Counted from the stretch's first letter, positions 19,760-58,218 are shown. The stretch: DNA of 64,000 nt from Roseibacillus sp. (GCA_051251855.1 JBPOGI010000001.1:352001-416000); one strand, 5' to 3'. Translations and numbers: made by a program. The notes: generated from the sequence alone by a model not told the origin.

Positions 19760-19791
19760 GCAAGAGCTGCGGATGAGAGGGCAAGGTAGGA
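19760..19791 (+). promoter_or_regulatory. 21-bp-period direct-repeat site (second half degenerate)
   Basis: GCAA-GAGC-TGC-N10-GCAA-GGTA-GGA upstream of USP. Confidence 0.65.
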
Positions 19792-19841
19792 AGAGTCACT
19801 GCGTGGGAAGTAAGCCAGTGTTTCGGCGAAAGGAAATGAGA

Positions 19842-20723
19842 ATGAAGAAAGTGATCGTGGTGGGAATTGATTTTTCGGAGTGTTCTCTTGGGGCGCTGCA
19901 AGAGGGCGCTCGATTGGCGAGTCTATGGGGGGGTGCGCTCCACCTTGTTCATATTGTGAATACGAAATTCTTTGAGCGAGAAGTTGATGAAAGCTATTTG
20001 ACGGAAGAAGTCGTGCTCAACGCTGCCCGAGAAGCTCTCGAGAATGTTGCAAGCGAGACCCTGGGCGCAGATGCGGCCTATCAAAGTCATGTTGCGGCGG
20101 GGCATCCCATCTACGGCCTTTTGGATCAAGTGAGTGAATTGAAGGCAGACCTTCTGGTGCTGGGGCGACAGGGAAATCATTTGAAGACTGCTCGTGATCC
20201 GGGTTCGGTTTCCCGAAGGGTCGCAACCTATGCTTCCTGTTCCGTTTTGCTGGTGGACTCCCATCGTCCTTCGTCGGAGGTGGTGCTTGCGTGTCTTGAT
20301 TTTTCAGAGTCAGCAGAGCGGGCGGTCGAGTTGGCTGCGAAGATGGCAGTGGAGTCAGGGAAGGACCTTTACCTTCTTCATATTGTTCCTTCTCTGAACG
20401 AACTCAGGGGGCCGTATTACGGACTCACCATTTTAGAAGAGAGTGATTATGAAAAATTGGTGCTCAGGGATAAGGAGAAGCTCAAAGTTTTTGCGGCCGC
20501 ACTTAAGGAGGAGCACCCTGTTCTGAGAATTGAAACGATTTTGGAGACTGGGGCTGCAATTCCATGTTTGATTTGTCGGACGACAGACCACGTTCATGCG
20601 GATCTTGTTGTCTTAGGCGCAAGCGGAAGCTCGGGCCTCATTACCAGATTTCTAGGAACCAATGCGGAGCGGGTGAACCAGGATTGCGCCTGTTCGGTTT
20701 TGACCGTTCGAGGGGAATGCTAG
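19842..20723 (+). CDS. Universal stress protein (two USP domains)
   Basis: IVVGIDFSE, DLLVLGRQG, LACLDFSE, DLVVLGASG..FLGTNAERV..CSVLTVR. Confidence 0.92.
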   Translation: MKKVIVVGIDFSECSLGALQEGARLASLWGGALHLVHIVNTKFFEREVDESYLTEEVVLNAAREALENVASETLGADAAYQSHVAAGHPIYGLLDQVSELKADLLVLGRQGNHLKTARDPGSVSRRVATYASCSVLLVDSHRPSSEVVLACLDFSESAERAVELAAKMAVESGKDLYLLHIVPSLNELRGPYYGLTILEESDYEKLVLRDKEKLKVFAAALKEEHPVLRIETILETGAAIPCLICRTTDHVHADLVVLGASGSSGLITRFLGTNAERVNQDCACSVLTVRGEC

Positions 20724-20743
20724 GTGGTGGGGATGGAGTCTTC

Positions 20744-21322
20744 TCAGGTGAAACTAGGAGCCTTCTCACCCGCTAGTGAGCAAAAGGTATCCAGCCACTT
20801 CGTAGTGCTCTCGAAGAGTTTGTTCGTAGGTGATTCAGCGGCATTCTGATAGGCTAGCTGGGCACTCTTAATTTGGGAGTCTGGGGCTCCGAGGTTTTTC
20901 AGGGTCGTCTCGATAGCTTTGGGGAGGCCTTCCTGAAATTCATGTTCGGGAAAAAGGCAGGTGGAGAGGTAGGCGAAGGGAGAACCATTGGCTCTGACGG
21001 GGGCGACATGAACACGGAGTCCAAAGTAGCAGGGGCAGTCCACAGCATCTTGGGTGGCGACAATTCTGATTCGGTGGTGACAGGCCTCGCAGACCGATTG
21101 AGTGAGAGCTTCCTCCTGCATGGCTTGACAAAAGGAGTTTCGAGTGGTGCCGATGGATTCACTAACTTGGTTGTTAGCGTCCTCTAGGCGTAGCGGAAGG
21201 CCTGTTGCCGCTTCGAAGGCGACAGCGAAGTCTTTCAGGAGCTTGCTTTGAGAGAAACTCTGAAAGAGTTCTTCGTTCTGAGTGCTTGCATCCTTCTGGT
21301 TGTGCGTTGTGGTTGAGTTCAT
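20744..21322 (-). CDS. Stand-alone PocR-like sensor-domain protein without HTH
   Basis: FEAATGLPLRL, NSFCQ, CEACH, CYFGLR align with the N-terminal domain of the 27303 AraC; ends before any HTH; start overlaps the upstream stop (ATGA). Confidence 0.75.
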   Translation of the reverse strand: MNSTTTHNQKDASTQNEELFQSFSQSKLLKDFAVAFEAATGLPLRLEDANNQVSESIGTTRNSFCQAMQEEALTQSVCEACHHRIRIVATQDAVDCPCYFGLRVHVAPVRANGSPFAYLSTCLFPEHEFQEGLPKAIETTLKNLGAPDSQIKSAQLAYQNAAESPTNKLFESTTKWLDTFCSLAGEKAPSFT

Positions 21323-22047
21323 AGCGTGGTGGTTTCTGATGAGTTCTTGGGAGCGTGATTACTGATTTCGATGGGGGTGCCCCGGTTCGCCCATTGGTAG
21401 AAGAATCGTGCCGGATTCCCATCCGTGAGTGGGACTCGGATACAGCCATGAGAAGCCGGATAGTTGGGAACGGAAGAGAATCCGTGGATGAAGATGTGGC
21501 CGTTGACCTGGACCGACCAAGGCATGGGAGCGTTGTGGTAGAGGCTGGAGTAGTGGCGCTTTGCCTTGTAGGGGCCGGCTCGAAAATGACCTATGGGGGT
21601 GCGGCCGTTCTTGCCTGAACTGATGCGGGTCTTGAGGACCAGCCGGTCTCCTTGCCATGCTGAAAGGCGCTGGGTCGAGAGATTGATAAAGACGCGCTTT
21701 GATCCGATGTGAACGGAGAGCTGCTGGCGACCTTTTTTTAGGATGATATCTTCGGCGTTGGACGCGGGTGTTCGCTGAAAGCCTTTTTTTTCCAAGGTCG
21801 TTAGGTTCACAAGAGGAGTGCCATCGACGAGACTACGCGTGCTTGGGGCGCTGGTGTTCTTTGGCAAAAAGGACTGTACCTCGGGGAGGGGGAGGAACAC
21901 TGAGGACCCAGTGTCTGCGAAGGTGATGCCTTGAAGTGGCTTCTGTGTGCTCGATGCACCCGCCAGCTTGGTGCTTGTTGGCAGTGTCTGGCAAGCGGTG
22001 AAAGTAGAGCAGCAAAGAACGAGGGCGAGGGTGTTCAGATTGGTCAT
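21319..22047 (-). CDS. L,D-transpeptidase (YkuD) family, probable lipoprotein
   Basis: INLSTQRL, ISSGK, TPIG, IFIHG, SHGCIRV; lipobox-like FTAC; start 22047 or 22053. Confidence 0.9.
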   Translation of the reverse strand: MTNLNTLALVLCCSTFTACQTLPTSTKLAGASSTQKPLQGITFADTGSSVFLPLPEVQSFLPKNTSAPSTRSLVDGTPLVNLTTLEKKGFQRTPASNAEDIILKKGRQQLSVHIGSKRVFINLSTQRLSAWQGDRLVLKTRISSGKNGRTPIGHFRAGPYKAKRHYSSLYHNAPMPWSVQVNGHIFIHGFSSVPNYPASHGCIRVPLTDGNPARFFYQWANRGTPIEISNHAPKNSSETTTL

Positions 22048-22083
22048 CTGCACCAGTTTAGTGCCTCAGGCACTGGCAGCTTC

Positions 22084-22115
22084 GCCTCCATTGCTCAGCT
22101 TAGCGCACGCTTTGG
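22084..22115 (-). promoter_or_regulatory. 21-bp-period direct-repeat site
   Basis: CCAA-AGCG-TGC-N10-GCAA-TGGA-GGC; TAAACT 23 nt downstream. Confidence 0.75.
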
Positions 22116-22128
22116 CAGGGGGAGGCTC

Positions 22129-24786
22129 TCATTGATGGTTTTGATTTCGCCAAGCAGCCCAACCGCGACCTACAAGGAGCGGGAAAAAGCTGCCGATAGC
22201 GATGAGTGTCCAGCCAACTTTTCCAGGGATGGTGAGTGAGAGAACAGTGGCAGGAAGGGGGAGAAAGAGCGCGCAGGATAGGATCAGGAGACAAAGAGCG
22301 AGCGCCCCCCACACCCACGAGTTTCGGGTGATTTCATTGTGAAAAATTCTGCTTCCTCGCTCGGTAATATTGAAGACATGCAAGAGCTGGGCCAGAGCCA
22401 GAATGAGGAAGGCGATGGTGACCGCTTCCTGCGCGGGAAGGTGGTAGGTAAAGAGGGCGAGGGTGAAGCAGGTCAGAACGGTGGCACTGATTAGGAGACT
22501 GAAGAGGGTAATGCGCAGCCATTCCTTGCGGGCAATGAGGGGTTCTCCGATATCACGCGGAGTTTGAGACATCATGGATGAATTTCCTCGACCCATCCCT
22601 AGCGCAAGGGCGGGGAAGACATCGGTGACCATGTTGAGAAAGAGAATTTGGAGCGGCAGGAGTGGCAAAGGACCGTTGAATCCTGCAGAGAGGCCGATGA
22701 TGAGGACTTCGCTCAAATTACAGGACATGAGGTAGACCACAAACTTGCGAATATTGCTAAAGATGACTCGTCCCTCTTGGATGGCCATCACGATGGTGGC
22801 GAAGGAGTCATCCTTGAGGACCATGTCAGAAGCCTCGCGCGCGACCTCGGTGCCACGCTGGCCCATTGCGATACCAATATCGGCCTTTTTGAGGGCGGGA
22901 GCGTCGTTGACACCATCACCCGTCATAGCGACAACCGAGCCGTGCTCTTGATGGCATTGCACAATGTCCAGCTTGTCCTTGGGGGTGACGCGAGCGAAAA
23001 TGTCAGTTGTTATGAGTTCGCTCTGGTCCTCTTTCTCTAACAAGTCAGCGAGCTCACTTCCGGTCACGCAGATTGGCTCCCGACCCTTTTGGCCGATGCC
23101 TAAGCTTTTGGAGACATGTTGCGCGGTGCCGGCTTGGTCGCCGGTAATCATGACTACTCGAATGCCTGCATTCTGGCACTGTTGCAAGCAGTCTTGAATT
23201 TCGTGTCGTGGAGGATCGAGGAAGCAGGCCAGTCCGAGAAAAGTAAGATTTTGGTAGGGGTCGGCCTTGAGGTCGGAAACGGTTTGATAGGCGAGAGCCA
23301 AGACTCGCTTACCCGCAAGAGCGAGTTCGTTGTTCTGATCGAGCCATCGATTGCGAGCTGTGGTGGTGAACGGACGGGAAATTCCGAGGTGTTCTTCTTG
23401 AGTCACCAAAGGAAGGATGACTTCGGGTGCTCCTTTGACCGCTACGAGGTAGCCTTCCTCGTCCTCGTGAAAGGTGGCCATTCGCTTCTCTTTTGAATCG
23501 AAGGCTTCTTCCCTCACGAGAGGCATTTCTTTTCGGATGCTCTCCCAATTGAGCTCATTGATGGTTGCGGCATTGAGGAGAGCGATTTCGACGGGATCGC
23601 CGATGGTTTGCTTGGGCGAGGGGGTGGAACGGTTGCAGAGAAGACCAATTTGGAGGGCTCGTTGAATGGCTTCCTCTTTTCCCTTGTCGCTATCGATGGG
23701 GTAGCAGCCGGAGGGGGTGACTAGCTCTGTTAGAGTCATTTTGTTCTCGGTCAGAGTTCCCGTTTTATCGGAACAGATCAGAGTGGTGGCTCCCAGAGTT
23801 TCGACTGCGGAGAGGCGATTGATGAGAGCGTTGGAGCGAGCCATGCGCCACATTCCTCGGGCAAGGGAAAGCGTTGCAATGACGGGCAAACCTTCGGGAA
23901 TGGCGGCCACAGCAAGGGCAATGGAAGTCTCTATCATGAGGTAGAGTTCCTTTCCTGAGAGGAGACCGACCCCCAGAGTGCAAAGGGCGATCAAGAGGGT
24001 TATCCCAATCAATTTTCGCCCAAGGAGAGCGAGATTTTTTTCTAGGGGAGTGTCGTCGGATTCAGTTTTACTGACGAGGGAGGAGATTTGGCCAAGTTCA
24101 GTCCCAAGTCCGGTGGCTACCACGACCGCGCTGGCGGTTCCGCGCGTGATCGATGTTCCGCGATAGAGCATGTTCTTTCTCTCGGCCAAGAGAGTGGTCG
24201 GCGGGAGTTCGGCTGGATCTTTGCTGGCGGGAAAGGATTCTCCGGTGAATAGGGACTCATCGACTAGGAGGCGAGAGGCGGTGATGATTCTAAGATCAGC
24301 TCCGACCACATCACCGGCTTCGATAACGACGAGGTCCCCTGGAACCAATTCCTCGGAAGGGACTCTCTGTACTTGGCCGTTCCGGCGCACTCGGGTTGTG
24401 ATTTGAGTGAACTTGCGGAGGGATTCCATCGAGCGGACCGCCCCCAGTTCAGTGAGATAGCCGATGGCAACATTAATGAGAACGACCACGCAAATGGCGC
24501 TCCCTTCTACCCAGTTCTGAAAGGCGAAGGAGAGAACTGCCGCAAAGGTGAGCAGGACGACCAGAAGATTTTGAAACTGGCTGAGAAGGATTTGAATCCA
24601 AGGTCTCTTAACGGCTTCTTGAAGTAAATTGGGACCGTGCTTCTGAAGTCGAGTTTGGCATTCTTGTGTGCTGAGACCATCATCTGGGGAGGTCTTCAGT
24701 TGCGTCAAAAGGAGAACGAGTGATTCCGCCCAAGGTTGGTCGCGGAGTAGGATTCTTGGCGTTCCGGTAGAGAGAGGGATCTTCAC
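22129..24786 (-). CDS. Cation-transporting P-type ATPase (type IIA-like)
   Basis: TGES, IPEGL, DKTGTLT, KGAPE, TGD, MTGDGVNDAPALK. Confidence 0.96.
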   Translation of the reverse strand: MKIPLSTGTPRILLRDQPWAESLVLLLTQLKTSPDDGLSTQECQTRLQKHGPNLLQEAVKRPWIQILLSQFQNLLVVLLTFAAVLSFAFQNWVEGSAICVVVLINVAIGYLTELGAVRSMESLRKFTQITTRVRRNGQVQRVPSEELVPGDLVVIEAGDVVGADLRIITASRLLVDESLFTGESFPASKDPAELPPTTLLAERKNMLYRGTSITRGTASAVVVATGLGTELGQISSLVSKTESDDTPLEKNLALLGRKLIGITLLIALCTLGVGLLSGKELYLMIETSIALAVAAIPEGLPVIATLSLARGMWRMARSNALINRLSAVETLGATTLICSDKTGTLTENKMTLTELVTPSGCYPIDSDKGKEEAIQRALQIGLLCNRSTPSPKQTIGDPVEIALLNAATINELNWESIRKEMPLVREEAFDSKEKRMATFHEDEEGYLVAVKGAPEVILPLVTQEEHLGISRPFTTTARNRWLDQNNELALAGKRVLALAYQTVSDLKADPYQNLTFLGLACFLDPPRHEIQDCLQQCQNAGIRVVMITGDQAGTAQHVSKSLGIGQKGREPICVTGSELADLLEKEDQSELITTDIFARVTPKDKLDIVQCHQEHGSVVAMTGDGVNDAPALKKADIGIAMGQRGTEVAREASDMVLKDDSFATIVMAIQEGRVIFSNIRKFVVYLMSCNLSEVLIIGLSAGFNGPLPLLPLQILFLNMVTDVFPALALGMGRGNSSMMSQTPRDIGEPLIARKEWLRITLFSLLISATVLTCFTLALFTYHLPAQEAVTIAFLILALAQLLHVFNITERGSRIFHNEITRNSWVWGALALCLLILSCALFLPLPATVLSLTIPGKVGWTLIAIGSFFPLLVGRGWAAWRNQNHQ

Positions 24787-24826
24787 TTTCTCGGCGAGTA
24801 TGAACTAAGGGTTGGAGATAGATTCA

Positions 24827-24858
24827 GCGTCGGCTGCTTATCTTTGAGCACGGCTTGC
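24827..24858 (-). promoter_or_regulatory. 21-bp-period direct-repeat site
   Basis: GCAA-GCCG-TGC-N10-GCAG-CCGA-CGC; CATACT 24 nt downstream. Confidence 0.78.
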
Positions 24859-24873
24859 AGAGACCGCTTCGCC

Positions 24874-24905
24874 GCAATTAATGCCATCTCGAGGTCAATG
24901 GATGC
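24874..24905 (+). promoter_or_regulatory. 21-bp-period direct-repeat site (perfect)
   Basis: GCAA-TTAA-TGC-N10-TCAA-TGGA-TGC; TATTCT 24 nt downstream; ATG at 24944. Confidence 0.85.
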
Positions 24906-24943
24906 CGAGTTCTTTGATGCGTCGAAGGGTATTCTCCTTCACT

Positions 24944-25783
24944 ATGATTCATCCCATTCGACGCATTCTGGTTCCCCTTGACCCCTCGGCCTATACCCAT
25001 GCCTCTACCATTCATGCTTGTCGCATTGCAAAGGCACACAATGCCACGGTCTCGGGATTGGCTGTTTTCGATTCGCCGGAGATTCGGAGTCTTCTCTCAC
25101 CTTCGGTTCCTTCGAGCTTGCCGTTTATTGAGAGTTTCATCAAGAAACACAGCGACCATGCCCACAAGAAACTCGACCTGGAGGATGAGAAGTTTCGTGA
25201 ACGTTGCACTCGCGAAGGGGTCGCATTCTCCGAGAGGGAGGTAGAAGGAATGCCTCAGGAACTCATTCTGGAGTCAGCTGCTCTCTATGATCTTGTGGTG
25301 ATGGGGTTGCGCACATTCTACCAGTTTGAGACGAAGAACGAAGACGGTGATTTGCTCAGTAAAGTCTTGAGCCGATCCTCTACTCCCATTCTGGCCGTCC
25401 CGAAAAAGGTGAAGCCGCTCAAGAAAGTTCTCGTGGCCTACGATGGTAGTTTTTCGGCTGCCCGGGCAGCGCGCGATTTTCTCGATTTTTCCTGCGTTCT
25501 GGACTTTGAGATCGACCTTTTTTGTTGTCACGATGATGTGGCTCAAGCCGAGTTCTTGTTGAACAAGCTCGAAAGTTTTTTCGAAGTTCATAGCCGTTCC
25601 ATTCATCAGAAAATCATCAGGAGTGGTTCTGAAAACGAATTGGTTGAGAGCGATTTTTTTGACCCTTACGACCTCGTGGTCTGCGGCACTCACGGGCATC
25701 GTCAACTCTCGGATTTCTTTGTGGGGAGCTTTTCCAAAAAGCTCATCGAGAAGAACGAGCGCTGCCTCTACCTTTCCCATTAG
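24944..25783 (+). CDS. Universal stress protein (two USP domains)
   Basis: RILVPLDPS, DLVVMG, KVLVAYDGS, DLVVCGTHG..FFVGSFS. Confidence 0.92.
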   Translation: MIHPIRRILVPLDPSAYTHASTIHACRIAKAHNATVSGLAVFDSPEIRSLLSPSVPSSLPFIESFIKKHSDHAHKKLDLEDEKFRERCTREGVAFSEREVEGMPQELILESAALYDLVVMGLRTFYQFETKNEDGDLLSKVLSRSSTPILAVPKKVKPLKKVLVAYDGSFSAARAARDFLDFSCVLDFEIDLFCCHDDVAQAEFLLNKLESFFEVHSRSIHQKIIRSGSENELVESDFFDPYDLVVCGTHGHRQLSDFFVGSFSKKLIEKNERCLYLSH

Positions 25784-25799
25784 AAGGCAGCGGGGGTCA

Positions 25800-25831
25800 G
25801 CAATCCCTGCTGGAACGAGGGCAAGAGACGC
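25800..25831 (+). promoter_or_regulatory. 21-bp-period direct-repeat site (perfect)
   Basis: GCAA-TCCC-TGC-N10-GCAA-GAGA-CGC. Confidence 0.85.
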
Positions 25832-25888
25832 GGAGCCCTATCTAATGGATTCTGCTGAGATAAATAGGCTTCCCAAAAAAAAATCATC

Positions 25889-26503
25889 ATGGCAATTGAA
25901 CTTCAAAAAGCAGACGAGATTCCGATCCTGATTCTTCGTCTCTCAGGCATCGTAGAACACCAAGAGCACCAACCTGTCATACCCTTGTTAGAGCGTGAGC
26001 TCGAGGAAGGTGGCTATCGAAATGTGCTGCTCGATATGCGTGACCTGGTTTCTTGGCAACCCTCGGCAGTGTGGGAGGAACTACGCTTCGATGCCGAGCT
26101 ACTTACTCATTTTCAGCGAGTGGCAGTGGTCAGTGACCGGACGCATCATCGTTGGGTCGCGTTTTTTGCAAGGCATCTCTCTTCTGCTGAGATTCGCTCT
26201 TTTCACAGCTCCGATATTGATGCGGCGAAGGAGTGGCTTGTCACTGGAACTCAAGAAGGTGATTCGAAAGAGGATACTGTAACAAGAGCGACTCCCACTC
26301 AGAATGACGGGGATTCCCTGCCTTTACGGAATCAGGAGGTTCTTGAAAATGTGATGCCTTATCGCTGGGGTGCTCTTTCTCTCATTTGGCGGTTGCTCAT
26401 CAATGGGAAGGAAAAGGGCTCAGCGAGGACGAGCCCTTCTCTTGCCGGCGTTTCTGAGCGGAGGTCTCACTCCACGCGGCTTATCCCTTTTCTCGATATC
26501 TAA
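25889..26503 (+). CDS. STAS/SEC14 (SpoIIAA-like) protein with an ~85-aa extra tail
   Basis: LSG.V, VLLDM, AVWEELRFD, RVAVV, AEIRSF, AAKEWL. Confidence 0.8.
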   Translation: MAIELQKADEIPILILRLSGIVEHQEHQPVIPLLERELEEGGYRNVLLDMRDLVSWQPSAVWEELRFDAELLTHFQRVAVVSDRTHHRWVAFFARHLSSAEIRSFHSSDIDAAKEWLVTGTQEGDSKEDTVTRATPTQNDGDSLPLRNQEVLENVMPYRWGALSLIWRLLINGKEKGSARTSPSLAGVSERRSHSTRLIPFLDI

Positions 26504-26514
26504 CAAACAAAAGA

Positions 26515-27144
26515 ATGAAGACACTAGAACCAAAAGAACAAGTAGACCTCCAACGATTGCACGACAAGTTGGATGAGTTTAAGAATCAGCTCTACATGGA
26601 TCGAGTTACCGTTGCTCAAGAAATGCGACTGCAGCTCAACGAGATGAAGTCCATGGTCGACGAACCATCCTCTCGCAAGCGGCATGATGCTGAGGAAGAA
26701 AGCGTGGCCCTTTATCAACAAGTCGTCTCAGATTTACAGACTCTCGAGTTGAAACTCGATCTTGTCGCGCTCGAAGTAGGAGAAGTTTTTACGGAAAAGA
26801 GAGAGCTCGCCCTGCAGCATTTGGATCAATTGCAGTCCAGCCTAAGGGAAGCCTCGGTCCAGATTCCTGATTCATCAGGCTCGATTCTTTATCAGTTAAG
26901 AATTTGCGCTGAGAAGTTGGAAGACAAGCTGGAGGGCATGCACCTGCACTTATTATTGAATAGTTGCGAGGGGAGTTTGGCTGAAGAGAAAAGGGAGGAG
27001 TTGTCACATGCCATTGACCAGGTGAAGTCAAGCTTGAGTGATTTTCCCAAGGGATTAGCGGTCAAGGGGCGAGGTCTTCGTAGTCGCCTCAAGATACTCT
27101 CCGAGGATGTGAACAATGCGCTCGAACGTTTCCTCGGGCACTAG
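26515..27144 (+). CDS. Helical coiled-coil protein, distant paralog of the 46513 and 53218 genes
   Basis: LQTLELKLDL and KLEDKLEGMHLHL match LDDLELQLTL and KLEDKMETLHIHL. Confidence 0.7.
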   Translation: MKTLEPKEQVDLQRLHDKLDEFKNQLYMDRVTVAQEMRLQLNEMKSMVDEPSSRKRHDAEEESVALYQQVVSDLQTLELKLDLVALEVGEVFTEKRELALQHLDQLQSSLREASVQIPDSSGSILYQLRICAEKLEDKLEGMHLHLLLNSCEGSLAEEKREELSHAIDQVKSSLSDFPKGLAVKGRGLRSRLKILSEDVNNALERFLGH

Positions 27145-27180
27145 TAGATTGCGGGGTGGCTTTGCTTCCTTTCAGCGTGG

Positions 27181-27195
27181 TAGGGAATTTGCTTA
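27181..27195. promoter_or_regulatory. Degenerate copy of the TAGGGAA(A/T)TTCCCTA palindrome
   Basis: TAGGGAATTTGCTTA, ~110 bp upstream of the PocR-AraC gene. Confidence 0.4.
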
Positions 27196-27302
27196 GGTGC
27201 CGACACGGCAGTCTCCCAATAGACGGGATCGTGCTTTTGGATAGTCTGCTTAGGGACGGGGGTAGGTAATCTTCCGCTGTTCCAAACCCAACTCTACTAG
27301 CC

Positions 27303-28226
27303 ATGCTTGCCGAATCAAATTCCACCATTGCCGACACTGTTGAGCTCGTTAAGCACCAGAAGATATTTGATCGCCTCAAAGAATCTCCTTTTTTTCAAAG
27401 CTATTGCAGCATCTTTCAGCAGACAACGGGGCTGCCTCTTGAACTCCACTCTCTGAGCGACGAGCATGTTCAAGTCTGTAGCGGTAGCATTAATCAGAAC
27501 CGATTTTGCCAACTATTGAACCAAGGAACCGAGGGCTGTGAGCAATGCCATCTTTCGCAAAAATGCCTTTCGCAAGGCGACGCGAAGTCGCGCGTGCAGT
27601 CCATCACCTGTTTCGCTGGGTTAAGGGAGACCGCCATTCCTCTCATGCTGGGTGGAGTAGTGATTGCCTTACTGAAGACCGGTCAAGTCCTTCATGAACC
27701 GATAACTTCGGTGAACTGGGATCAGGTCTCGAGTCAGTTGGGAGTGGAAGGGGAAGAACTTGCGGAGTTGGCTCAAGCTTACCTCGAGACTCCGGTGATC
27801 GGGGCGGAGAAGTATCGCGCGATGGTAACCCTTCTGGCTGCCTTCTCCTTGCAGTTGAACAAACTCGCCAGTCGTATCGCGTTTGACTTGGAGCAAGAAC
27901 AAGTTGACTTAGTCGAACGAGCGAAGGCTCTCATTGAAGAGCACCTCACCGAGTCGCTGACCTTCAATGATGTCGCTGAGTATCTCAAAATTAGCCCTTT
28001 CTATTTTTGTCGCCGCTTCAAGAAAGAGACCGGAATGACGATGACTCAATACCTCTCGATGCATCGCGTTGAAGTGGCGAAAGAGCTTTTAAGGTCTTCC
28101 AAGTTGCGTGTGACCGATGTCGCATACGAGGTAGGGTTTCAATCGCTCTCTCAGTTCAACCGAAGCTTTCGCAAGTTGACAGGTGTAAGTCCGAGCCAGT
28201 TTAGAAAGGCGAGGGAGTTTGCTTGA
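27303..28226 (+). CDS. AraC-family regulator with Cys-rich PocR-like sensor domain
   Basis: FQQTTGLPL, NRFCQ, CEQCH, TCFAGLRETAIP, LKTGQV; HTH region ISPFYFCRRFKKETG...VGFQSLSQFNRSFRK. Confidence 0.93.
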   Translation: MLAESNSTIADTVELVKHQKIFDRLKESPFFQSYCSIFQQTTGLPLELHSLSDEHVQVCSGSINQNRFCQLLNQGTEGCEQCHLSQKCLSQGDAKSRVQSITCFAGLRETAIPLMLGGVVIALLKTGQVLHEPITSVNWDQVSSQLGVEGEELAELAQAYLETPVIGAEKYRAMVTLLAAFSLQLNKLASRIAFDLEQEQVDLVERAKALIEEHLTESLTFNDVAEYLKISPFYFCRRFKKETGMTMTQYLSMHRVEVAKELLRSSKLRVTDVAYEVGFQSLSQFNRSFRKLTGVSPSQFRKAREFA

Positions 28227-28827
28227 AATTGTGCCATTTCAACCAGCATAGAGCGGCAATCCCTCCAACCATATTTGCAATCAGATCCCAACCAGTGTTG
28301 GAATAGTCCCCAACATTGGTCTCCGGGATGAAGAGGGTGGCAATGAACTCGATGACTTCATTGAGGGCTCCCAAACCCATGCCTGCGAAAAATACCAGTA
28401 GGAGGGGACCAATCCTTGGAGTGAGAAGCTGTCCATTTCGGCAGGCGATGATGCTTTTGAGCGAATGCCAGCAGACAAGGGTGGCGATGTAGAAGCCCGA
28501 AGCGTGAACGACCTGATCATATTTTAGAAGATTGGGAATGAGCCAGAGGCTATAGAGCACGCGAATGGGGCCTTCGATTTGCCAACTGGTGGGCACTGGT
28601 AGGATGCCTCCCATCACGTGTAAGAGTCCCCAAACAGCAAGTCCCCATAGTAGAGGGAGCGTGAGACGGACATGACTGTGGAGCAGCGCGGTGACGGCTA
28701 TCATGATCAGCATGACTAAGAGGTAAAAGACGAACTCAAAGTTGTCGGTGAGAATAGCAGTTGCCCCTCCTAGCAACAGATAGCTCGTGGTAAAGAGGAT
28801 GAGAGGGCGAAGAGGTTTGGGGAACAT
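28201..28827 (-). CDS. Membrane protein, DUF2238/YjdF-like
   Basis: Multiple TM segments; YDQVVH, GALNEVIEF, NTGWDLIAN; start 28827 (ATG) or 28881. Confidence 0.75.
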   Translation of the reverse strand: MFPKPLRPLILFTTSYLLLGGATAILTDNFEFVFYLLVMLIMIAVTALLHSHVRLTLPLLWGLAVWGLLHVMGGILPVPTSWQIEGPIRVLYSLWLIPNLLKYDQVVHASGFYIATLVCWHSLKSIIACRNGQLLTPRIGPLLLVFFAGMGLGALNEVIEFIATLFIPETNVGDYSNTGWDLIANMVGGIAALCWLKWHNFKQTPSPF

Positions 28828-28938
28828 AGATTTGGAATCAACGAGGTTTTTAAGAGCGCTCCAAGCAAAGGGAGAGCTCACTCAGTGCGTTGCAGGTTCT
28901 CCTTATACGATTTCGAACGAGGTGAGAGACTCTCGTAA

Positions 28939-47196: not shown

Positions 47197-47217
47197 TTTA
47201 TTGTTCTTAGTATGTGC

Positions 47218-47305
47218 CTAGAAGAGAAGGTTGAGAACCGCCATGAGCGCTCGTCCCGCGAGGAGGTTCGTGAAGCCTGCTGAGAATCCAAAAGAAGGCA
47301 CTCAC
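47218..47305 (-). pseudogene. ZIP transporter remnant with ~650-bp internal deletion
   Basis: Start MSAFFWILS is joined out of frame to the end LLAGRALMAVLNLLF*. Confidence 0.8.
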
Positions 47306-47314
47306 AACACGGGA

Positions 47315-50401: not shown

Positions 50402-50433
50402 CCAATTGGCGCATAAGTTCAGGCAAAAAACGC
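50402..50433 (+). promoter_or_regulatory. 21-bp-period direct-repeat site (perfect)
   Basis: CCAA-TTGG-CGC-N10-GCAA-AAAA-CGC; CAGTCT 24 nt downstream. Confidence 0.85.
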
Positions 50434-50472: not shown

Positions 50473-50833
50473 ATGCCCATCGAAATTAGAGAATTGAACG
50501 GTAACGAAGCTCTCGAACTGATCCTCTCAGGCTCAATCGGCAAGGAGGACTACGGGGAGACCATTCCCATTGTTGAGGGAGCCATTGCCCAACATGGAAA
50601 GGTTTCGCTCCTAATGAATCTGTGCCAGATGGAACACTGGGAGCCGAATACGATCTGGGAGGAGCTAAAGTTTGATGTGAAGAATTTTCGTCACTTCGCC
50701 AAGATTGCGGTGGTTGGAAATGAAAGATGGGAAGAGTGGCTGACCAAGGCCTCGGGGTATTACTCCTGCCGAGGTTCGATTCTTTGGTTGCTCAGCGAGC
50801 GAGGCTGCTGAGCGATGGTTTTTAGATGAGTAA
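50473..50833 (+). pseudogene. STAS/SEC14 (SpoIIAA-like) gene frameshifted near 50761
   Basis: IWEELKFD..KIAVVG..W; expected end TPAEVRFF...AAERWFLDE* lies in another frame. Confidence 0.75.
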
Positions 50834-51031: not shown

Positions 51032-53197
51032 TCACTCCGGAAGAATGGCCAAGTGGTCGTATGGGGCTTCTGTTGCAGGAACTGGTTTGACCACGATGCG
51101 GGCATCCAACGCCATGACGCCTCCCGGATGAGCGACTAGGGGGTTGATGTCCAGTTCGACGATCTCGGGCAGCTCACAGACGAGTTGAGATAATCTTAGT
51201 AGGGCGTGCACGAGTTGTGCTTCATCGACGGGTGGCATGTTCCGGAACGGTCCCAGCAAGCGCGCTACCTTTGTGCGTGAAATCATGTGATGAATCAGGA
51301 CTTCATTCAGTGGCGGAAGGGCGACGGCCCGGTCTTTGAAAACCTCGACTGTGACTCCCCCTGAACCGAAGCTAATGGCAGGACCAAAAACTTCATCACT
51401 GATGACTCCTGCAATCAATTCTCTCGCATGGCTGGGCCGGAACATGGGTTCGATTGTCACTCCGCAGATATTCGCTTCAGGTGCGACCTTTCTGATTCGC
51501 TTGAGCATTGTTTGATAGGCTTCTTCGACCTGATTCGCATCTGTGAGATTGAGTTCGATCCCTCCGACATCTGATTTGTGGGTGAGTTCTGGGGAGCTGA
51601 TTTTGAGCGCGACGGGATAGCCCACCTCTTCGGCAGCATCGATCGCCTCTTGCACGCTTGTCGCTTCGCGTGTGGGAATGATGGGGATCTGAAATGCTTC
51701 GAGAATACGTTTTGACTCGATTGCGGTGAGTTGCTCACGTCCGCTATCGAGAGCTTCCCTGATGACTCGACGTGCCGTTTGAACCTCGGCAGGTCGATGG
51801 TCCCGCAGTGGGCTTGGGAGCTCTAACATCATCTTTTGATTGCGACGGTATTGCGCGAGATGAGAGAAGGCAGCCATGGCGCTTTCCGGAGTGGAGAAGG
51901 AGGGGATGTCGGCCTCGGTGAAAAGATGCCGGGCTCCTTCCACTTGCTTGCCGCCCATCCAACAGGCGAGCACCGGTTTCTGAGATTCTGTGTGCGCGGT
52001 CATTGTGGCCTGCGCCACCGCAATTGGGTCAGTCATGGCCTGTGGGGTGAGCATGGCCAGCACCGCATCAATATTCTTATCGGCGAGGCATACGCGGAGG
52101 GCTCCACGATACCTATCTACTCCTGCATCTCCGAGAATGTCCGCAGGGTTTGCATGCGACCATTGGGGAGGTAGGCAGGCGTTGAGTTTCTCGAGAGTGC
52201 TTGCTTCGAACTCGGGCAACCTTACGCCCAGTTCGCTGGCGCAATCGGCAGCGATCACTCCAGGTCCTCCCGCATTACTCACAATCGCGAGACCGTTACC
52301 TCTCACTTGGCAATTGCTAGAGAGAATCCGGGCAGCTGAAAAGAGTTCTTCAAAGGTTCTGACGCGCACGACACCTGTCCGCTCCAATGCGGCATCAAAA
52401 ACATCATCCGCTCCAACGAAGGCGCCCGTGTGCGAAACAGCGGCTTTGGCTCCAGCTTGGTGACGTCCTGCCTTCATCACAATAACGGGTTTCAACTGTG
52501 CGGCTGCTCGCAGTCCTCTTAAGAAGGATCGCGCATGATGGACGCCTTCGATATAGAGAAGGATACTGTTCGTTTTCTCATCGCGAGCGAGAAAATCGAG
52601 CATTTCACCTAAATCAATATCAGCAGTGGCTCCGAGTGACACCACTGCCGAAAACCCGATTTCTTGGGACTCCGCCCAATCTAGGATTGCGGTGCAGAGG
52701 GCTCCGCTTTGGGAGATTAAAGCAAGGTTTCCAGACAGGGCACCGTTTTTGCTAAAGGTGGCATTGAGACCAGCCGAGGGGCGCATCACTCCGAGGCAGT
52801 TTGGACCGACGAAGCGAATGTTCGCCCGTTGAGCAGCGGAGAGGACTTTATCTTGCAGGAGTCGGCCCTCAGTGCCTATTTCGGCAAATCCAGCCGAGAG
52901 AACAATCGCCGCTGGTATTTTGGCTTTACCGCATTGCTCAATAATTTTGGGAACAGAGTTCGCAGGAGTAGCGATGACCGCCAAGTCGATTGAGTCCTCT
53001 AGGGAGGCAAGATCAGGATAGCATTTGTGTTGAAGAACGGTCTTCCGCTTCGGATTGATCGGAATGACCTTTCCTTTGAATCCAAAGGAAAGGAGGTTCT
53101 CAAAGACACGCCCTCCGACTGATTCGGATCGCGTGCTCGCTCCAAAAACGGCAATGGTCTTGGGCGCAAAAAGAGGACTGAGGGAGTGTCCTTTCAT
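51032..53197 (-). CDS. ADP-forming acetate/acyl-CoA ligase family (CoA-binding + ligase + ATP-grasp), no GNAT domain
   Basis: PKTIAVFGAS, GPNCLG, SQSGA, SHTGA, HKSDVGG, ELDINPL, ALDARI. Confidence 0.9.
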   Translation of the reverse strand: MKGHSLSPLFAPKTIAVFGASTRSESVGGRVFENLLSFGFKGKVIPINPKRKTVLQHKCYPDLASLEDSIDLAVIATPANSVPKIIEQCGKAKIPAAIVLSAGFAEIGTEGRLLQDKVLSAAQRANIRFVGPNCLGVMRPSAGLNATFSKNGALSGNLALISQSGALCTAILDWAESQEIGFSAVVSLGATADIDLGEMLDFLARDEKTNSILLYIEGVHHARSFLRGLRAAAQLKPVIVMKAGRHQAGAKAAVSHTGAFVGADDVFDAALERTGVVRVRTFEELFSAARILSSNCQVRGNGLAIVSNAGGPGVIAADCASELGVRLPEFEASTLEKLNACLPPQWSHANPADILGDAGVDRYRGALRVCLADKNIDAVLAMLTPQAMTDPIAVAQATMTAHTESQKPVLACWMGGKQVEGARHLFTEADIPSFSTPESAMAAFSHLAQYRRNQKMMLELPSPLRDHRPAEVQTARRVIREALDSGREQLTAIESKRILEAFQIPIIPTREATSVQEAIDAAEEVGYPVALKISSPELTHKSDVGGIELNLTDANQVEEAYQTMLKRIRKVAPEANICGVTIEPMFRPSHARELIAGVISDEVFGPAISFGSGGVTVEVFKDRAVALPPLNEVLIHHMISRTKVARLLGPFRNMPPVDEAQLVHALLRLSQLVCELPEIVELDINPLVAHPGGVMALDARIVVKPVPATEAPYDHLAILPE

Positions 53198-53217
53198 CTG
53201 GTAAAAGGGGATGTGGT

Positions 53218-53901
53218 TTAGTCAGGCACGTTCCCGTCCGTCTCTTTTCGTTCCCGACGTTCTTCGTCCGTTAGATCATACCCTAGCATGCCGGCGGCGA
53301 GGGCCTCCCAGACAAAGGCCGAGGCTTTCTGAATCTTCCGCCCAATCACCGGGAGCTCTTCCTTGGACGCCTCGCCAAGCTCTCTGAGTTCCCCAGAGAA
53401 TTTTTTTGCAATTTTTTGGATGTTCTCTTTTTCCCGGTCCAGAGCTTCTTCGGTATGGGTTTTGCTCAATTTCAGGTGAATGTGGAGGGTCTCCATTTTG
53501 TCCTCGAGTTTCCGGACCTTGGCCACAAAGTCTTTGTAGCGGAGAATGCCCTCATGATCTTCTGCCGATTCGATCAGCTGTATGGTGGAGTCCATGGCGG
53601 CGAGGGACTTCAGAATACCTTCTTTTTGTTCCCGAAAGGCGTCCTCGGTTTCCATGCGTGCCAGGGTGAGTTGTAGCTCAAGGTCATCGAGTTGCTGTTT
53701 AAGTTCGTGCCATTCGATTCCGAGGGTTTCGTTGAGTCCATCCGCCTGTTCGGGGAATCCTGCGGAGGCCTTCTTCAGGTCCTGACAGTGTTCCTCGAAT
53801 TGGTGGATAGCTTGGTCGGTATCGAGGGCCATTTCACTTTCGATCTTCTCTAGCTTGGCCGCGAGTTGTTCGATTGTTTTGGTAGTCTGATTTGTCGTCA
53901 T
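53218..53901 (-). CDS. Helical coiled-coil protein, copy B
   Basis: 227 aa paralog of 46513..47196. Confidence 0.85.
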   Translation of the reverse strand: MTTNQTTKTIEQLAAKLEKIESEMALDTDQAIHQFEEHCQDLKKASAGFPEQADGLNETLGIEWHELKQQLDDLELQLTLARMETEDAFREQKEGILKSLAAMDSTIQLIESAEDHEGILRYKDFVAKVRKLEDKMETLHIHLKLSKTHTEEALDREKENIQKIAKKFSGELRELGEASKEELPVIGRKIQKASAFVWEALAAGMLGYDLTDEERRERKETDGNVPD

Positions 53902-53920
53902 TTTATTTTTCTGTAAGTGA

Positions 53921-54658
53921 TTAGAAGAGAAGCTTGAGAGCCGCCATAAGTAATATCCCAGCGAGGAAGCTCAGAAAATGGATGGTGTTTTTGTGTGTGT
54001 CGGAATGTTTGTTAATCTCAGGAACGAGATCGGAAGCTCCAATATAGAGGAAGTTTCCCGCTGCCAGTGGCACGAGAAAGGCGATGTCTAAATTGAAGGA
54101 GGCGAAGTAAGCAACGAGGCCTCCAACCAAGAAGGTGAGGGCTGAGAGGGCATTAAAGAGTAGTGCCTTTCGCTTGTCCCATCCTCCATGAATCAATACC
54201 CCAAAGTCACCGAGTTCCTGGGGGACCTCATGTGCCGCTGCTGCCAGCCAGCTCATGATTCCTAGACGGATGTCGATCAGGAAAGTGCCGCCAATCGCAA
54301 GCCCACCGATGAAATTATGGAGGCCGTCTCCGATTAAAATCAGATAGGTGAGTGGCTCCTTGCACTCAGTCTCGGCCCGGTGACAGTGATGCCAATGAAG
54401 GAACTGCTCCAGAGCAAAGAAGGTTGTGAAGCCCGCGAGAATCCAAAGATAGAATCCGACCTTGTCCCCGTATTCGGCTAAACCTGCCGGAATCATGTGC
54501 AGAAAGGCACCGCCAATGAGGGAACCCGCAGCAAAGGCGACTAGCGGCAATAGGATTTTGTCGAGAGCCTCTTTTTTTAGAAAGAGAGTCACACTCCCAA
54601 CCAAAGCAATAGCACTCATGAGGAGGCCACTGCTGAGAATCCAAAAGAAGGCACTCAC
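53921..54658 (-). CDS. ZIP-family metal transporter
   Basis: HWHHCH loop, GDGLHNFIGG, HEVPQELGDFG. Confidence 0.93.
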   Translation of the reverse strand: MSAFFWILSSGLLMSAIALVGSVTLFLKKEALDKILLPLVAFAAGSLIGGAFLHMIPAGLAEYGDKVGFYLWILAGFTTFFALEQFLHWHHCHRAETECKEPLTYLILIGDGLHNFIGGLAIGGTFLIDIRLGIMSWLAAAAHEVPQELGDFGVLIHGGWDKRKALLFNALSALTFLVGGLVAYFASFNLDIAFLVPLAAGNFLYIGASDLVPEINKHSDTHKNTIHFLSFLAGILLMAALKLLF

Positions 54659-54667
54659 AACACGGGA

Positions 54668-55234
54668 TTAAGCCTCACTAGAGGAATGATTTTTGAGGAA
54701 GCGATGGCTGAGGAAAGTAGCGATGATGAGGAGGGCGATCCATACAGGGGCTGGCACTGGGGTAGCTTCATCGAGGCGGATTTTTCCCAGGACGCCCACG
54801 GACAGGATATGCTCATTGACCCATCCGTAGGAGAGCGCGTAGAGAATTCCTCCTACGAGCATGCCCACCATTCCGATCAAGGCGTGGACACTTCCAATCG
54901 CTGCTGCAGCGATTCCGGTGCCGGGGCAATATCCATAGATCACCATGCCAGCTCCAAAGAGGAGCCCTCCCAGGGAGACTCCGAGGACGAGGGTGTCCTT
55001 GATATGGTATCCCGCAATCCAGTCCATGCGGGCAAAGAGATAAACGCCGATGCTCCCCACGGTGATGGCGGTGAGCATGACCTTGGGGACGGTCATGTCC
55101 CTGAAGCGGAAGAAGTTGACGATGACGTTGTAGTCAGTGACACGGCCTTTATTGAGAAGGAACCCAAAGAGAGTGCCGAAGACTGCGGCGAGAATGAGTC
55201 CTGCGGTGGATGAGGTTTCGATGGGTAGGTTCAT
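54668..55234 (-). CDS. YeeE/YedE sulfur-compound transporter half
   Basis: FGFLL, GGLLFGAGM..GYCPGT. Confidence 0.88.
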   Translation of the reverse strand: MNLPIETSSTAGLILAAVFGTLFGFLLNKGRVTDYNVIVNFFRFRDMTVPKVMLTAITVGSIGVYLFARMDWIAGYHIKDTLVLGVSLGGLLFGAGMVIYGYCPGTGIAAAAIGSVHALIGMVGMLVGGILYALSYGWVNEHILSVGVLGKIRLDEATPVPAPVWIALLIIATFLSHRFLKNHSSSEA

Positions 55235-55247
55235 AAGAATGTTTGGA

Positions 55248-55802
55248 CTATTTTTTAAAGAGGAGGCGAGCTGTGATGACGCCACCGACAAACATTGCAG
55301 CGAAGAAGAGCCATCCCGAAACGGCGAGTTGGAGAGTGCCACTGATGGCGTGACCGCTGGTGCAGCCTCCGGCCATACGTGCACCGTAGAGAACGAGCGC
55401 TCCGCCACCAAAGGCTGCGAGGAAACGCTTCCATGGCTGTCCTCCGAAGTGTTCTTGCCAGACCGTGGGGACAAGTTCCGCGCGGAAGGTCTTTGATATC
55501 ATGGAACTCAGAAATGCGCCGACGGCGGTGAAGATAAGAAAGATGGTGGAGTAGCCAAACTTGGGAACTGTTTTGACCCAGTAGGTATTGGTTGCAACGA
55601 ATTCGTCGCCGCCGAGGGCCTTAAGCGTCCAGCCGGAGAGCTTAGAGACTTCAGTGGACATACCGAGTGGCTTGTCCACGAAGAGGAAGACGAACCAACT
55701 CAAGATTCCGATACCTGCACCCACAAGGTAGGGGTTCCAGGTCGCTTGTGCGAGGAAGCATGAAAATTCACCTTTCGGAGAACGAGATGAGATAGTCTTC
55801 AC
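55248..55802 (-). CDS. YeeE/YedE sulfur-compound transporter half
   Basis: WNPYLVG, GARMAGGCTSGH. Confidence 0.9.
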   Translation of the reverse strand: MKTISSRSPKGEFSCFLAQATWNPYLVGAGIGILSWFVFLFVDKPLGMSTEVSKLSGWTLKALGGDEFVATNTYWVKTVPKFGYSTIFLIFTAVGAFLSSMISKTFRAELVPTVWQEHFGGQPWKRFLAAFGGGALVLYGARMAGGCTSGHAISGTLQLAVSGWLFFAAMFVGGVITARLLFKK

Positions 55803-55839: not shown

Positions 55840-55871
55840 GCAGGGATTGCTCTAGACCTCGCGGAGATTGA
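55840..55871 (-). promoter_or_regulatory. 21-bp-period direct-repeat site (perfect)
   Basis: TCAA-TCTC-CGC-N10-GCAA-TCCC-TGC; TAGCCT 24 nt downstream. Confidence 0.85.
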
Positions 55872-56611: not shown

Positions 56612-56620
56612 AATGACTGG

Positions 56621-57349
56621 TTAGTTTGGTAGTTTGTGAGGGGTTGTAAGATGTTCTTGATGGCTCAGGTACTTTCTTGAAGAAGCTGAGAGATCTGGGT
56701 TCAGTTTATAGACTAGAGGAATACCGGTGGGGACTTCTAAGTCTTCAACGTCCGTATCCGATAGTCCGTCGAAATATTTGATGAGGGCGCGAAAGGTATT
56801 GCCGTGCGCTACAATGAGGATGCGCTCTCCACTTTGGACTTGGGGTGCGATGCTCTCCAGCCAATAGGCTACAGTGCGTTTGAGAACATCTTGCAGGCTT
56901 TCAGTAAACGGAATTTCGGTTCTTGAGAGGCTTGAGTAGCGAGGGTCCTTAATGGGGTTTCTCGCATCATCTTCGGTGATGGCTGGAGGGCGGGGGTGAT
57001 AGCCACGCCTCCAGAGTTGGACCTGTTCGTCACCGTGCTTGCGCGCGGTCTCCGCTTTGTTGAGGCCCTGTAACTTTCCGTAGTGGCGTTCGTTGAGGTG
57101 CCAGTCTTTGACCACCGGCAGCCAGGCTTGGTCCAGTTCATCCATCACGCCCCACGCGGTATGCACGGCGCGTTTCAACAGGGAGGTGTAGACTCGGTCA
57201 AAGGTGGAGTCCTCTTTTCGTAGAAGTTGGCCCGCGCGCTGGGCTTCCTTCCGGCCTTGTTCGCACAGGTCTACATCAGTCCAGCCTGTGAACCTGTTCT
57301 CCAGATTCCACTGACTGAACCCGTGCCTGAGTAGCGTGAGTTGATGCAT
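56621..57349 (-). CDS. gpmA: 2,3-BPG-dependent phosphoglycerate mutase
   Basis: LLRHG, NRFTGW, LNERHYG, WRR, VAHGN. Confidence 0.96.
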   Translation of the reverse strand: MHQLTLLRHGFSQWNLENRFTGWTDVDLCEQGRKEAQRAGQLLRKEDSTFDRVYTSLLKRAVHTAWGVMDELDQAWLPVVKDWHLNERHYGKLQGLNKAETARKHGDEQVQLWRRGYHPRPPAITEDDARNPIKDPRYSSLSRTEIPFTESLQDVLKRTVAYWLESIAPQVQSGERILIVAHGNTFRALIKYFDGLSDTDVEDLEVPTGIPLVYKLNPDLSASSRKYLSHQEHLTTPHKLPN

Positions 57350-57364
57350 TGAACGCCCTTTTTC

Positions 57365-58135
57365 TTAGCGCGCGGTGTATCCGCCATCAATGACAAGTTC
57401 ACTTCCGGTGACAAATTTGGATTCATCGGATGCGAGATAGATGGCTCCATAGGCGATGTCCTCAGGCTGGCCGACATGCCCTATGGGGTGGAGACTATCC
57501 AAGGTTTCACGAAACTTATCAGGACCTTCCGGGGAGCGGTTCCCGAGCTCTTCCACTAGCGGAGTCCAGATGAATCCAGGATGAATTGAATTTACTCGGA
57601 TGCCTTTCGAAGCGTAGAAGAGCGCGTCTGTCTTTGTCATCAGGCGCACGGCTCCCTTGGAGGCGTGATAGGCTGGTAAGTCCGGTGCACTAACGAGTCC
57701 GTAGATTGAAGAGAGATTGATGATGCTGCCTCCGCTTGTTTTTAGAAGATAGGGGATGGCATGCTTGGTGCACAGAAAGACTCCTTTGACATTGACGTTG
57801 ATGACCTTGTCCCATTCTTCTTCCGTCACTTCGTGAGTTGGCTTGCTCACCCCGGCAATGCCCGCGTTGTTTACCAGAATGTCGATGCGGCCGTGCTTGT
57901 CGAATGTTGCTTTCATGACGGATTCGACGTTGCTGGAATCTGTCACATCAAGGCTGAGAAAGTCAGCGCTGCCGCCAGCGTCGCGGATTTCCTGAGCGGC
58001 GGCCTCACCTTCTCTTTCAAGTAGGTCCGCGATGACAACGAGTGCTCCTTCTGCAGCAAATTGTTTAGCGATGGATTCTCCGATGCCGAGTGCGGCGCCT
58101 GTGACGATAGCTATTTTGTCCTTAAGTCGATTCAT
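57365..58135 (-). CDS. SDR-family oxidoreductase
   Basis: TGAALGIG, NNAG, YHASK, DGG. Confidence 0.95.
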   Translation of the reverse strand: MNRLKDKIAIVTGAALGIGESIAKQFAAEGALVVIADLLEREGEAAAQEIRDAGGSADFLSLDVTDSSNVESVMKATFDKHGRIDILVNNAGIAGVSKPTHEVTEEEWDKVINVNVKGVFLCTKHAIPYLLKTSGGSIINLSSIYGLVSAPDLPAYHASKGAVRLMTKTDALFYASKGIRVNSIHPGFIWTPLVEELGNRSPEGPDKFRETLDSLHPIGHVGQPEDIAYGAIYLASDESKFVTGSELVIDGGYTAR

Positions 58136-58186
58136 TGTTCTCTTAGATTTCTTCGGAGCTTACTCCGATATTTTCAGCACTACTGA

Positions 58187-58218
58187 CTCCTGACTGCCCT
58201 TGGATCCGCTAATATTGC
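58187..58218 (-). promoter_or_regulatory. Weak 21-bp-period direct-repeat site
   Basis: GCAA-TATT-AGC-N10-GCAG-TCAG-GAG; TAAGCT 24 nt downstream. Confidence 0.45.

Follow-up and report, generated by a model that had tools for sequence, protein, structure and literature searches.

A clustered direct-repeat promoter box in Roseibacillus and its likely link to PocR-domain AraC-family activators

Introduction

What could coordinate the scattered transcription units of a stress-gene island in a bacterium that seems to have no FNR-type regulator? The question is raised by a 64,000-nucleotide stretch (the window) of the genome of Roseibacillus sp., a marine verrucomicrobium of the order Verrucomicrobiales (JBPOGI010000001.1:352001-416000). 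An earlier reading of the window, made from the sequence alone, had noticed a direct repeat ahead of many genes and had taken it for an AraC-type operator next to -35 that ties the island genes into one regulon. Here, we define this repeat as a 31-bp box, CAA-N4-YGC-N11-CAA-N4-YGC, in which the half-site CAA-N4-YGC occurs twice, 21 bp apart, and we find that the core of the earlier proposal stands on comparative evidence. The box is a genuine promoter element, conserved between genomes, and most probably serves as the operator for activators that combine a PocR sensor domain with an AraC-type DNA-binding domain (PocR-AraC proteins), represented in the island by AraC1 (27303-28226).

Abundance and placement of the box

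All eight perfect boxes listed by the sequence-only reading were recovered (Table 1); its plus-strand starts lay 1 nucleotide (nt) lower, one leading N having been included. Its claim of a large excess over chance is borne out, as 100 dinucleotide-preserving shuffles of the window yielded no perfect box and the genomic density predicts 0.22 for the window. The eight copies fall within 31 kb and, as had been described, every one of them lies outside open reading frames (ORFs) of at least 120 amino acids (aa) and is oriented toward a downstream gene. The whole assembly (G000; 4.96 Mb in 13 contigs, 95% complete) contains 17 perfect boxes. Of the nine outside the window, seven are inside long ORFs, as should be expected of chance matches, and the other two are intergenic and situated on contig C9 in the region of the genes for the cbb3-type oxidase (cco genes). 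The 21-bp spacing is specific to the box: same-strand half-site pairs occur in the window 8 times at this spacing and 5 times at all other spacings from 11 to 40 bp taken together.

Copies with one mismatch, as a class, are not enriched: the window has 4 of them, two within coding DNA, and 3.08 would be expected. Because this class occurs at background density, we retained only those one-mismatch copies that have independent support. The two reported earlier, at 22084 and 24827 on the minus strand, do exist but belong to this class. For weaker sites, we used a scoring matrix built solely from the eight perfect window sites. In the rest of the genome, it gives 0.008 hits per 20 kb at 18 bits or more (2 hits in all), 0.066 at 16 or more, and 0.23 at 14 or more. 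Hits elsewhere in the genome (C6:418054, C1:775928, C6:492511, C8:284090, and others) were located inside ORFs or before unrelated genes and were treated as chance. The first 18 kb of the window, where no copies had been noticed ahead of genes, indeed hold no box with zero or one mismatch and no matrix score above 10.3.

Boxes and regulators in related islands and at cbb3-oxidase loci

The island has counterparts in three relatives: G004, of the same genus; G279, from a different genus of the family; and L018, a short contig of a metagenome-assembled genome. They encode AraC1 orthologues (59% and 43% identity) as well as full-length AraC2, the second AraC-type protein of the island (see below), and other congeners carry solely a PocR-AraC paralogue linked to cco genes. 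With the window-derived matrix, we found four sites of 18 bits or more in the 20-kb island of G004, two in that of G279 (six at 14 or more), and one in the 6.8 kb of L018. The boxes in these relatives head orthologous targets, namely a unit of two universal stress protein (USP) genes and a DUF2238 gene, the DksA-like gene (in G004), glgA (in G279), the P-type ATPase gene, and a DUF2238-AraC1 unit. Judged by sequence comparison, the box motif is independently recovered in the islands of relatives. Footprinting in relatives, a check put forward by the sequence-only reading, has come out in its favor, with clustered boxes in orthologous islands of three relatives, accompanied by PocR-AraC genes.

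The regulon is not purely local in scope. On contig C9 of the same genome (142011-167042), four boxes on the minus strand (144795, 145357, 165337, and 167012) precede ccoS-ccoNO, ccoG, and the gene ahead of ccoI, and the cco cluster is closed by a second PocR-AraC gene (C9:159783-160712) whose product is 40% identical to AraC1. Across the Verrucomicrobiales, the regulator is found with ccoNO, ccoG, or ccoI in 16 of 22 PocR-AraC loci; the first loci collected (L002 to L012) had 1.5-kb flanks and were uninformative. Thirteen loci of the order include the ccoNO 5' region. In all 13, a box with zero to three mismatches is located 194 to 339 bp upstream of the aligned ccoNO start, and in 11 of them it has at most one mismatch, the chance of which in that interval is about 0.004 per locus at the genomic rate. 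This box lies shortly before a small CcoS-like ORF in seven of the nine loci checked. A second box, about 780 to 810 bp upstream of ccoNO and before an ORF of about 180 aa, is found in G000 and again in G004, G007, and G015.

When the phylum was searched, other orders of the class proved to have full-length PocR-AraC relatives at about 40% identity. In another order, 8 of 12 PocR-AraC loci contain ccoNO, and six of these eight have boxes with zero or one mismatch between the regulator and oxidase genes. The boxes of this order often form back-to-back divergent pairs, comparable to the pair 24827(-)/24875(+) in the window. One of its loci (L075) has boxes before two tandem-USP genes. Another (L072, in G473) has six perfect boxes in 20 kb, including one at 6793-6823 on the minus strand, 39 nt before a gene for a 1207-aa pyruvate:ferredoxin oxidoreductase (PFOR).

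In the loci searched by tblastn, for which cco, PocR-AraC, AraC2, and USP queries but no response-regulator query were used, no regulator gene other than PocR-AraC was identified beside the box. Genome G026 combines the box, a PocR-AraC gene, and the oxidase and is devoid of full-length AraC2. The box thus travels with PocR-AraC genes and not with AraC2. In a phylogenetic tree, the three island regulators group together (support, 96/97) and are separate from the family's cco-linked regulators, which form a clade of their own (97/94). The island clade branched from regulators that reside beside cbb3-oxidase clusters across the class and use the same type of box.

Promoter geometry and the candidate activator

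Conservation of the box is confined to its specified positions, and its N positions vary freely. The distal half-site reads (G)CAA(T/A)-N3-YGC, and the proximal one reads (G)CAA-N3-A-YGC, followed by nnAG. A -10-like element, nAnnnT, begins 23 to 25 nt past the box at seven of the eight window sites (about 1.3 expected) and at 11 of 17 island-type sites from four genomes. Assuming a 17-bp spacer, this would put the box at about -37 to -67, and no TTGACA-like hexamer is present at the -35 position of the box promoters. A consensus scan of 24700 to 28300 retrieved no sigma-70 promoters versus 2.2 in shuffles. The geometry would suit a promoter of the activator-dependent type.

AraC1 is the most likely candidate for this activator. 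Pfam recognizes a PocR domain (PF10114; E = 1.5e-22; residues 30 to 187) and an AraC-type double helix-turn-helix (HTH) domain (HTH_AraC, E = 8e-28; HTH_18, E = 2e-26). The best NCBIfam model, NF047788 for Salmonella PocR, scores 110.5 bits against an equivalog cut-off of 500, so that the match is not at the equivalog level. An AlphaFold model (24-sequence alignment; mean predicted local distance difference test score [pLDDT], 87.1) places residues 201 to 307 among AraC-type DNA-binding domains, with Z scores of 12 to 18 to 3oou, the AdpA-DNA complex 3w6v, the MarA-DNA complex 1bl0, and SoxS (7w5w). The N-terminal half of the model resembles effector domains of the GAF/IclR type (PobR 5w1e, Z 9.8; Nlh1 GAF, 9.3; NifA GAF, 9.2; DevS GAF-B, 7.2), and such middling scores indicate a class of fold rather than a function. 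At the sequence level, matches to solved structures were limited to the DNA-binding domain, and an Atlas search returned nothing but PocR-domain clusters. Across 24 sequences, three cysteines of the protein never vary (C69, C82, and C103), and most of the sequences have a fourth one, C79. The cysteine motif is kept in a stand-alone PocR-domain protein of the island, which may modulate the regulator, and is lost in AraC2.

We propose that the two DNA-binding domains of a dimer would each occupy one 10-bp half-site, and that the activator, bound at about -37 to -67, would replace the missing -35 contact and recruit RNA polymerase, as AraC and XylS do. The GAF-like PocR domain, with its three invariant cysteines, might sense the signal. 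The AraC1 gene itself may be cotranscribed with the unit behind box 2, across a 158-nt gap.

Several observations weigh against this assignment. The CAA and YGC elements of a half-site are about 7 bp apart from center to center, which is tighter than the sub-motif spacing of about 11 bp in MarA, AraC, and XylS sites. A strict TAnnnT is found 18 to 30 nt past the box at only 6 of the 17 island-type sites, a test that is weaker than the positional one with nAnnnT. The flanks of the island boxes differ from those of the cco boxes, and the genome has two PocR-AraC paralogues, either of which may serve a given box. Furthermore, related genomes are not independent samples, so that counts of loci overstate the statistical weight, even though the intergenic DNA is otherwise diverged. 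AraC2 may also be able to bind the same boxes, as it shares a recognition helix with AraC1 and adjoins a box in three genomes.

Alternative explanations

The sequence-only reading had assigned the box to the local AraC proteins. We retain this for the PocR-AraC type but not in equal measure for AraC2 (40413-41114). The similarity of AraC2 to AraC1 covers about 25 residues at the start and the last 139 (38% identity in the double-HTH domain), and AraC2 has lost the central part of the PocR domain, about 115 residues. Conceivably, it is AraC2 that sits on the island boxes, under the control of the neighboring two-component system of PAS kinase and NarL-type regulator, and AraC1 serves other sites or plays no more than a modulating role. 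The second recognition helix of AraC2 is nearly letter-identical to that of AraC1 (SQFNR), its gene divergently adjoins a box in the window, G004, and L018, and full-length orthologues were found solely in island-bearing genomes; the neighborhood of AraC2, kinase, and response regulator recurs in G004, G279, and L018. The phyletic pattern cannot separate the two proteins within islands, because every island with enough sequence also has AraC1. Outside the islands, however, there are many genomes, such as G026, in which AraC2 found no more than HTH-domain matches and cco promoters next to PocR-AraC genes nevertheless carry this type of box. A single distant AraC2-like locus was examined (in G054; 36% identity), and no clear box lies near it. 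On balance, we consider a primary role of AraC2 at the boxes unlikely.

The NarL/GerE response regulator of the island (42710-43384) might likewise be thought to bind the boxes, in the way that DevR/DosR acts at dormancy promoters. The gene content of the island resembles that of dormancy regulons, a HisKA_3 kinase and a GerE regulator are part of the island in four genomes, and DevR/DosR promoters, in a passage of PMC3177182, have tandem boxes with the proximal one near -35. The mycobacterial DevR/DosR regulon shares with the island its many USP genes. The Dev box, however, to which a NarL-type regulator binds, is palindromic and 20 bp long. The present box repeats short asymmetric half-sites in direct orientation, and the genes that it travels with are of the AraC type. 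The island GerE regulator is not tied to the box, and at the cco loci, the regulator found beside the box with the queries given above is PocR-AraC. We therefore regard this explanation as very improbable.

Finally, given that the motif was derived post hoc from the very sites at which it was counted, it could be asked whether the box is a transcription factor operator at all. It might instead be a repeat dispersed through the genome, or an alternative sigma factor might recognize it. A mobile repeat is not expected to leave the N positions free, and it is for this reason that we reject it. The box consists of two identical half-sites, and the -10-like element stands apart from it, which does not fit the -35/-10 signature of a sigma factor. 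A Pfam scan of the 40 ORFs between 18.2 and 63.2 kb detected no sigma factor gene, the sole sigma-related match being a sub-cutoff Sigma70_r4_2 on the GerE regulator. The motif was, moreover, recovered independently at orthologous promoters of distant genomes, and we give this last explanation hardly any credence. The operator of PocR-AraC activators, with AraC1 as its local representative, remains the explanation that we favor.

Known systems and the possible signal

Class II activation from tandem direct repeats is familiar from AraC at araI1-I2 and XylS at Pm. For CphR, an AraC-type regulator of Rhodococcus, the account of its sites in PMC6205950 gives two direct repeats of 15 bp with the sequence TGCA-N6-GGNTA, located at -35 to -49 and -55 to -69. 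With these three systems, the one described here has in common a regulator with a C-terminal double-HTH domain and a pair of direct repeats separated by one or two turns of the helix; the proximal repeat reaches the -35 region in those systems and would probably do so here. It differs in the half-site, whose sub-motifs are closer together, in the sensor, which is a GAF-like PocR domain with invariant cysteines instead of a cupin or sugar-binding domain, and in the targets, which are respiration and stress genes and not a catabolic operon. The PIP or hrpII box of the AraC family members HrpX and HrpB (Xanthomonas and Ralstonia), TTCGB-N15-TTCGB, has a -10-like element at a fixed distance and controls many scattered units. 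The likeness thus extends to short direct repeats about 20 bp apart, to the fixed distance of the -10-like element, and to a single regulon of scattered units, but the sequence, the phylum, and the regulon (type III secretion in their case) differ, and HrpX and HrpB have no PocR domain. Salmonella PocR, the activator of pdu and cob, has the same combination of a PocR sensor and an AraC DNA-binding domain. The NF047788 score of AraC1 noted above is, however, far below the equivalog cut-off, and among the 40 ORFs between 18.2 and 63.2 kb, the Pfam scan gave no family that would point to pdu or cob genes.

With respect to target genes, FNR, Anr, and FixK regulons are similar in that one box governs both a high-affinity oxidase and a cluster of genes for USPs, HSP20, and storage or fermentation. 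An example is the Lxa locus of Burkholderia cenocepacia: according to a section of PMC12973609, its USPs, HSP20, phasin, and acetoacetyl-CoA reductase rise in hypoxia, and a FixK site has been proposed. Here, the regulator belongs to the AraC rather than the CRP/FNR family, AraC1 has no cNMP-binding or HTH_Crp domain, and the site is a direct repeat rather than a palindrome of the type TTGAT-N4-ATCAA. No ORF in the whole genome combines cNMP_binding (PF00027; one 171-aa hit) with HTH_Crp_2 (PF13545; two marginal hits elsewhere), so that a canonical CRP/FNR regulator was not detected.

Oxygen limitation or a linked redox cue has, in our estimation, about an even chance of being the signal. We infer it from the targets, which comprise the high-affinity oxidase, PFOR, USPs, the ADP-forming acyl-CoA synthetase, and glycogen genes, with HSP20 in addition in G279, from the conserved cysteines of the sensor, and from the failure to find a CRP/FNR-type ORF. 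Three points speak against it. To our knowledge, Salmonella PocR is the sole PocR that has been studied, and it responds to 1,2-propanediol. The cysteines could hold a structural zinc or sense copper, and ccoI encodes a copper pump. In G279, in which the island, AraC1, AraC2, and boxes are present, no ccoNO was detected at E <= 1e-50 in a 96%-complete assembly, which means that the island regulon can exist without the oxidase. A broader scenario is tentative and, to our mind, rather doubtful: PocR-AraC proteins would be the oxygen sensors of the Verrucomicrobiae that stand in for the missing FNR and FixK and, via a cysteine-ligated iron-sulfur or metal center in the GAF-like domain, activate the cbb3 oxidase, PFOR, and USP genes from the tandem box with its 21-bp period. 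The island would then be a patchily distributed, probably transferable hypoxia survival island that arrived with a regulator gene of its own, together with a paralogue devoid of the sensor and a sensor domain that stands alone.

In searches of the full-text literature, we found no description of this regulon and no link between PocR and cbb3 oxidases; the PocR-AraC regulon is in this sense undescribed and belongs to the AraC/XylS kind of system. Very few transcription factor operators, as far as we know, have been defined in Verrucomicrobiota. Here, sequence by itself reveals a regulator family, its probable operator, and a coherent set of targets, all of which hold in two orders or more. The set comprises the high-affinity oxidase, PFOR, USPs, glycogen genes, acyl-CoA synthetase, the DksA-like factor, and CbpA/CbpM. 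This may offer a testable handle on the response to low oxygen or energy stress in abundant marine and soil bacteria without an FNR-type regulator, and a physiological context for the poorly understood PocR domain and for several island proteins of unknown function, two of them large. It may also provide a compact inducible promoter design for a phylum that is short of genetic tools.

Gene units of the island

In the window, we count eight firm, two probable, and two possible box promoters (Table 1), so that the earlier figure of 12 to 13 transcription units was an overcount. The probable sites owe their grade to scores above a level at which the rest of the genome gives 0.066 hits per 20 kb. 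The possible ones were retained not for their own scores but because orthologues in relatives carry boxes: the P-type ATPase orthologue of G279 is box-bearing, and the USP operon of G004 that is orthologous to the 45.5-kb USP gene has a strong box. Of the more degenerate copies in the sequence-only reading, those at 19761 and 46432 hence survive, but the site at 58187 on the minus strand was rejected, as its score is below 8 and its likeness to the motif is confined to the distal half; the unit behind it is unsupported.

Table 1 Box sites and regulator genes of the island, with positions in the window
Feature	Coordinates	Strand	Genes downstream or remarks
Box 1, perfect	24875-24905	+	Before tandem-USP gene (ORF up to 25783)
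Box 2, perfect	25801-25831	+	Before SpoIIAA-like gene 25889-26503, 209-aa gene 26515-27144, and possibly AraC1
Box 3, perfect	31725-31755	-	Before glgA-like 29933-31525, tandem USP 28939-29874, DUF2238 28201-28881
Box 4, perfect	35980-36010	-	Before TIG-domain protein 34992-35939, 471-aa protein 33576-34991
Box 5, perfect	40274-40304	-	Before 1399-aa ORF 36099-40298; divergent from AraC2, a layout repeated in G004 and L018
Box 6, perfect	45136-45166	-	Before DksA-like 44751-45155, CbpA-like 43779-44744, weak CbpM-like 43426-43755
Box 7, perfect	50403-50433	+	Before second SpoIIAA-like gene 50473-50811
Box 8, perfect	55840-55870	-	Before two YeeE/YedE-type genes, ZIP 53921-54658, 227-aa gene 53218-53901, ADP-forming acyl-CoA synthetase 51032-53197
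Probable box	22084-22114	-	1 mismatch, score 17.1; before YkuD 21319-22053 and stand-alone PocR-domain protein
Probable box	19761-19791	+	2 mismatches, score 16.8; before tandem-USP gene ending at 20723
Possible box	24827-24857	-	1 mismatch, score 11.1; before P-type ATPase 22129-24786; arranged back to back with box 1
Possible box	46432-46462	-	Score 14.5; before tandem USP 45502-46392
AraC1	27303-28226	+	PocR sensor domain and AraC double-HTH domain; proposed cognate activator
AraC2	40413-41114	+	AraC1 paralogue without central cysteine-bearing part of PocR domain
Hybrid REC-PAS-HisKA_3 kinase	41293-42708	+	Downstream of AraC2
NarL/GerE response regulator	42710-43384	+	Downstream of hybrid kinase
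Stand-alone PocR-domain protein	20744-21322	-	Shares cysteine motif of AraC1 but has no DNA-binding domain; gene lies downstream of YkuD transpeptidase gene

Two features of the right-hand part of the island deserve mention. The YeeE/YedE-type sulfur transport homologue behind box 8 (54668-55802, minus strand) is spread over two overlapping ORFs, each of which matches a different half of the Pfam profile, one of 184 aa corresponding to profile positions 172 to 310 and one of 268 aa corresponding to positions 2 to 147; these are either two genes or the product of a frameshift. Part of the same region is duplicated inside the island: 46510-47576 corresponds to 53215-54929, with one 300-nt stretch that is 100% identical and another that is 80% identical. 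The offsets of the two stretches differ by 648 bp, so that the left copy is without most of the ZIP gene. A phage integrase fragment (Phage_int_M; E = 5e-18) is located beside this duplication at 47837-48079, and the two together look like a recombination scar.

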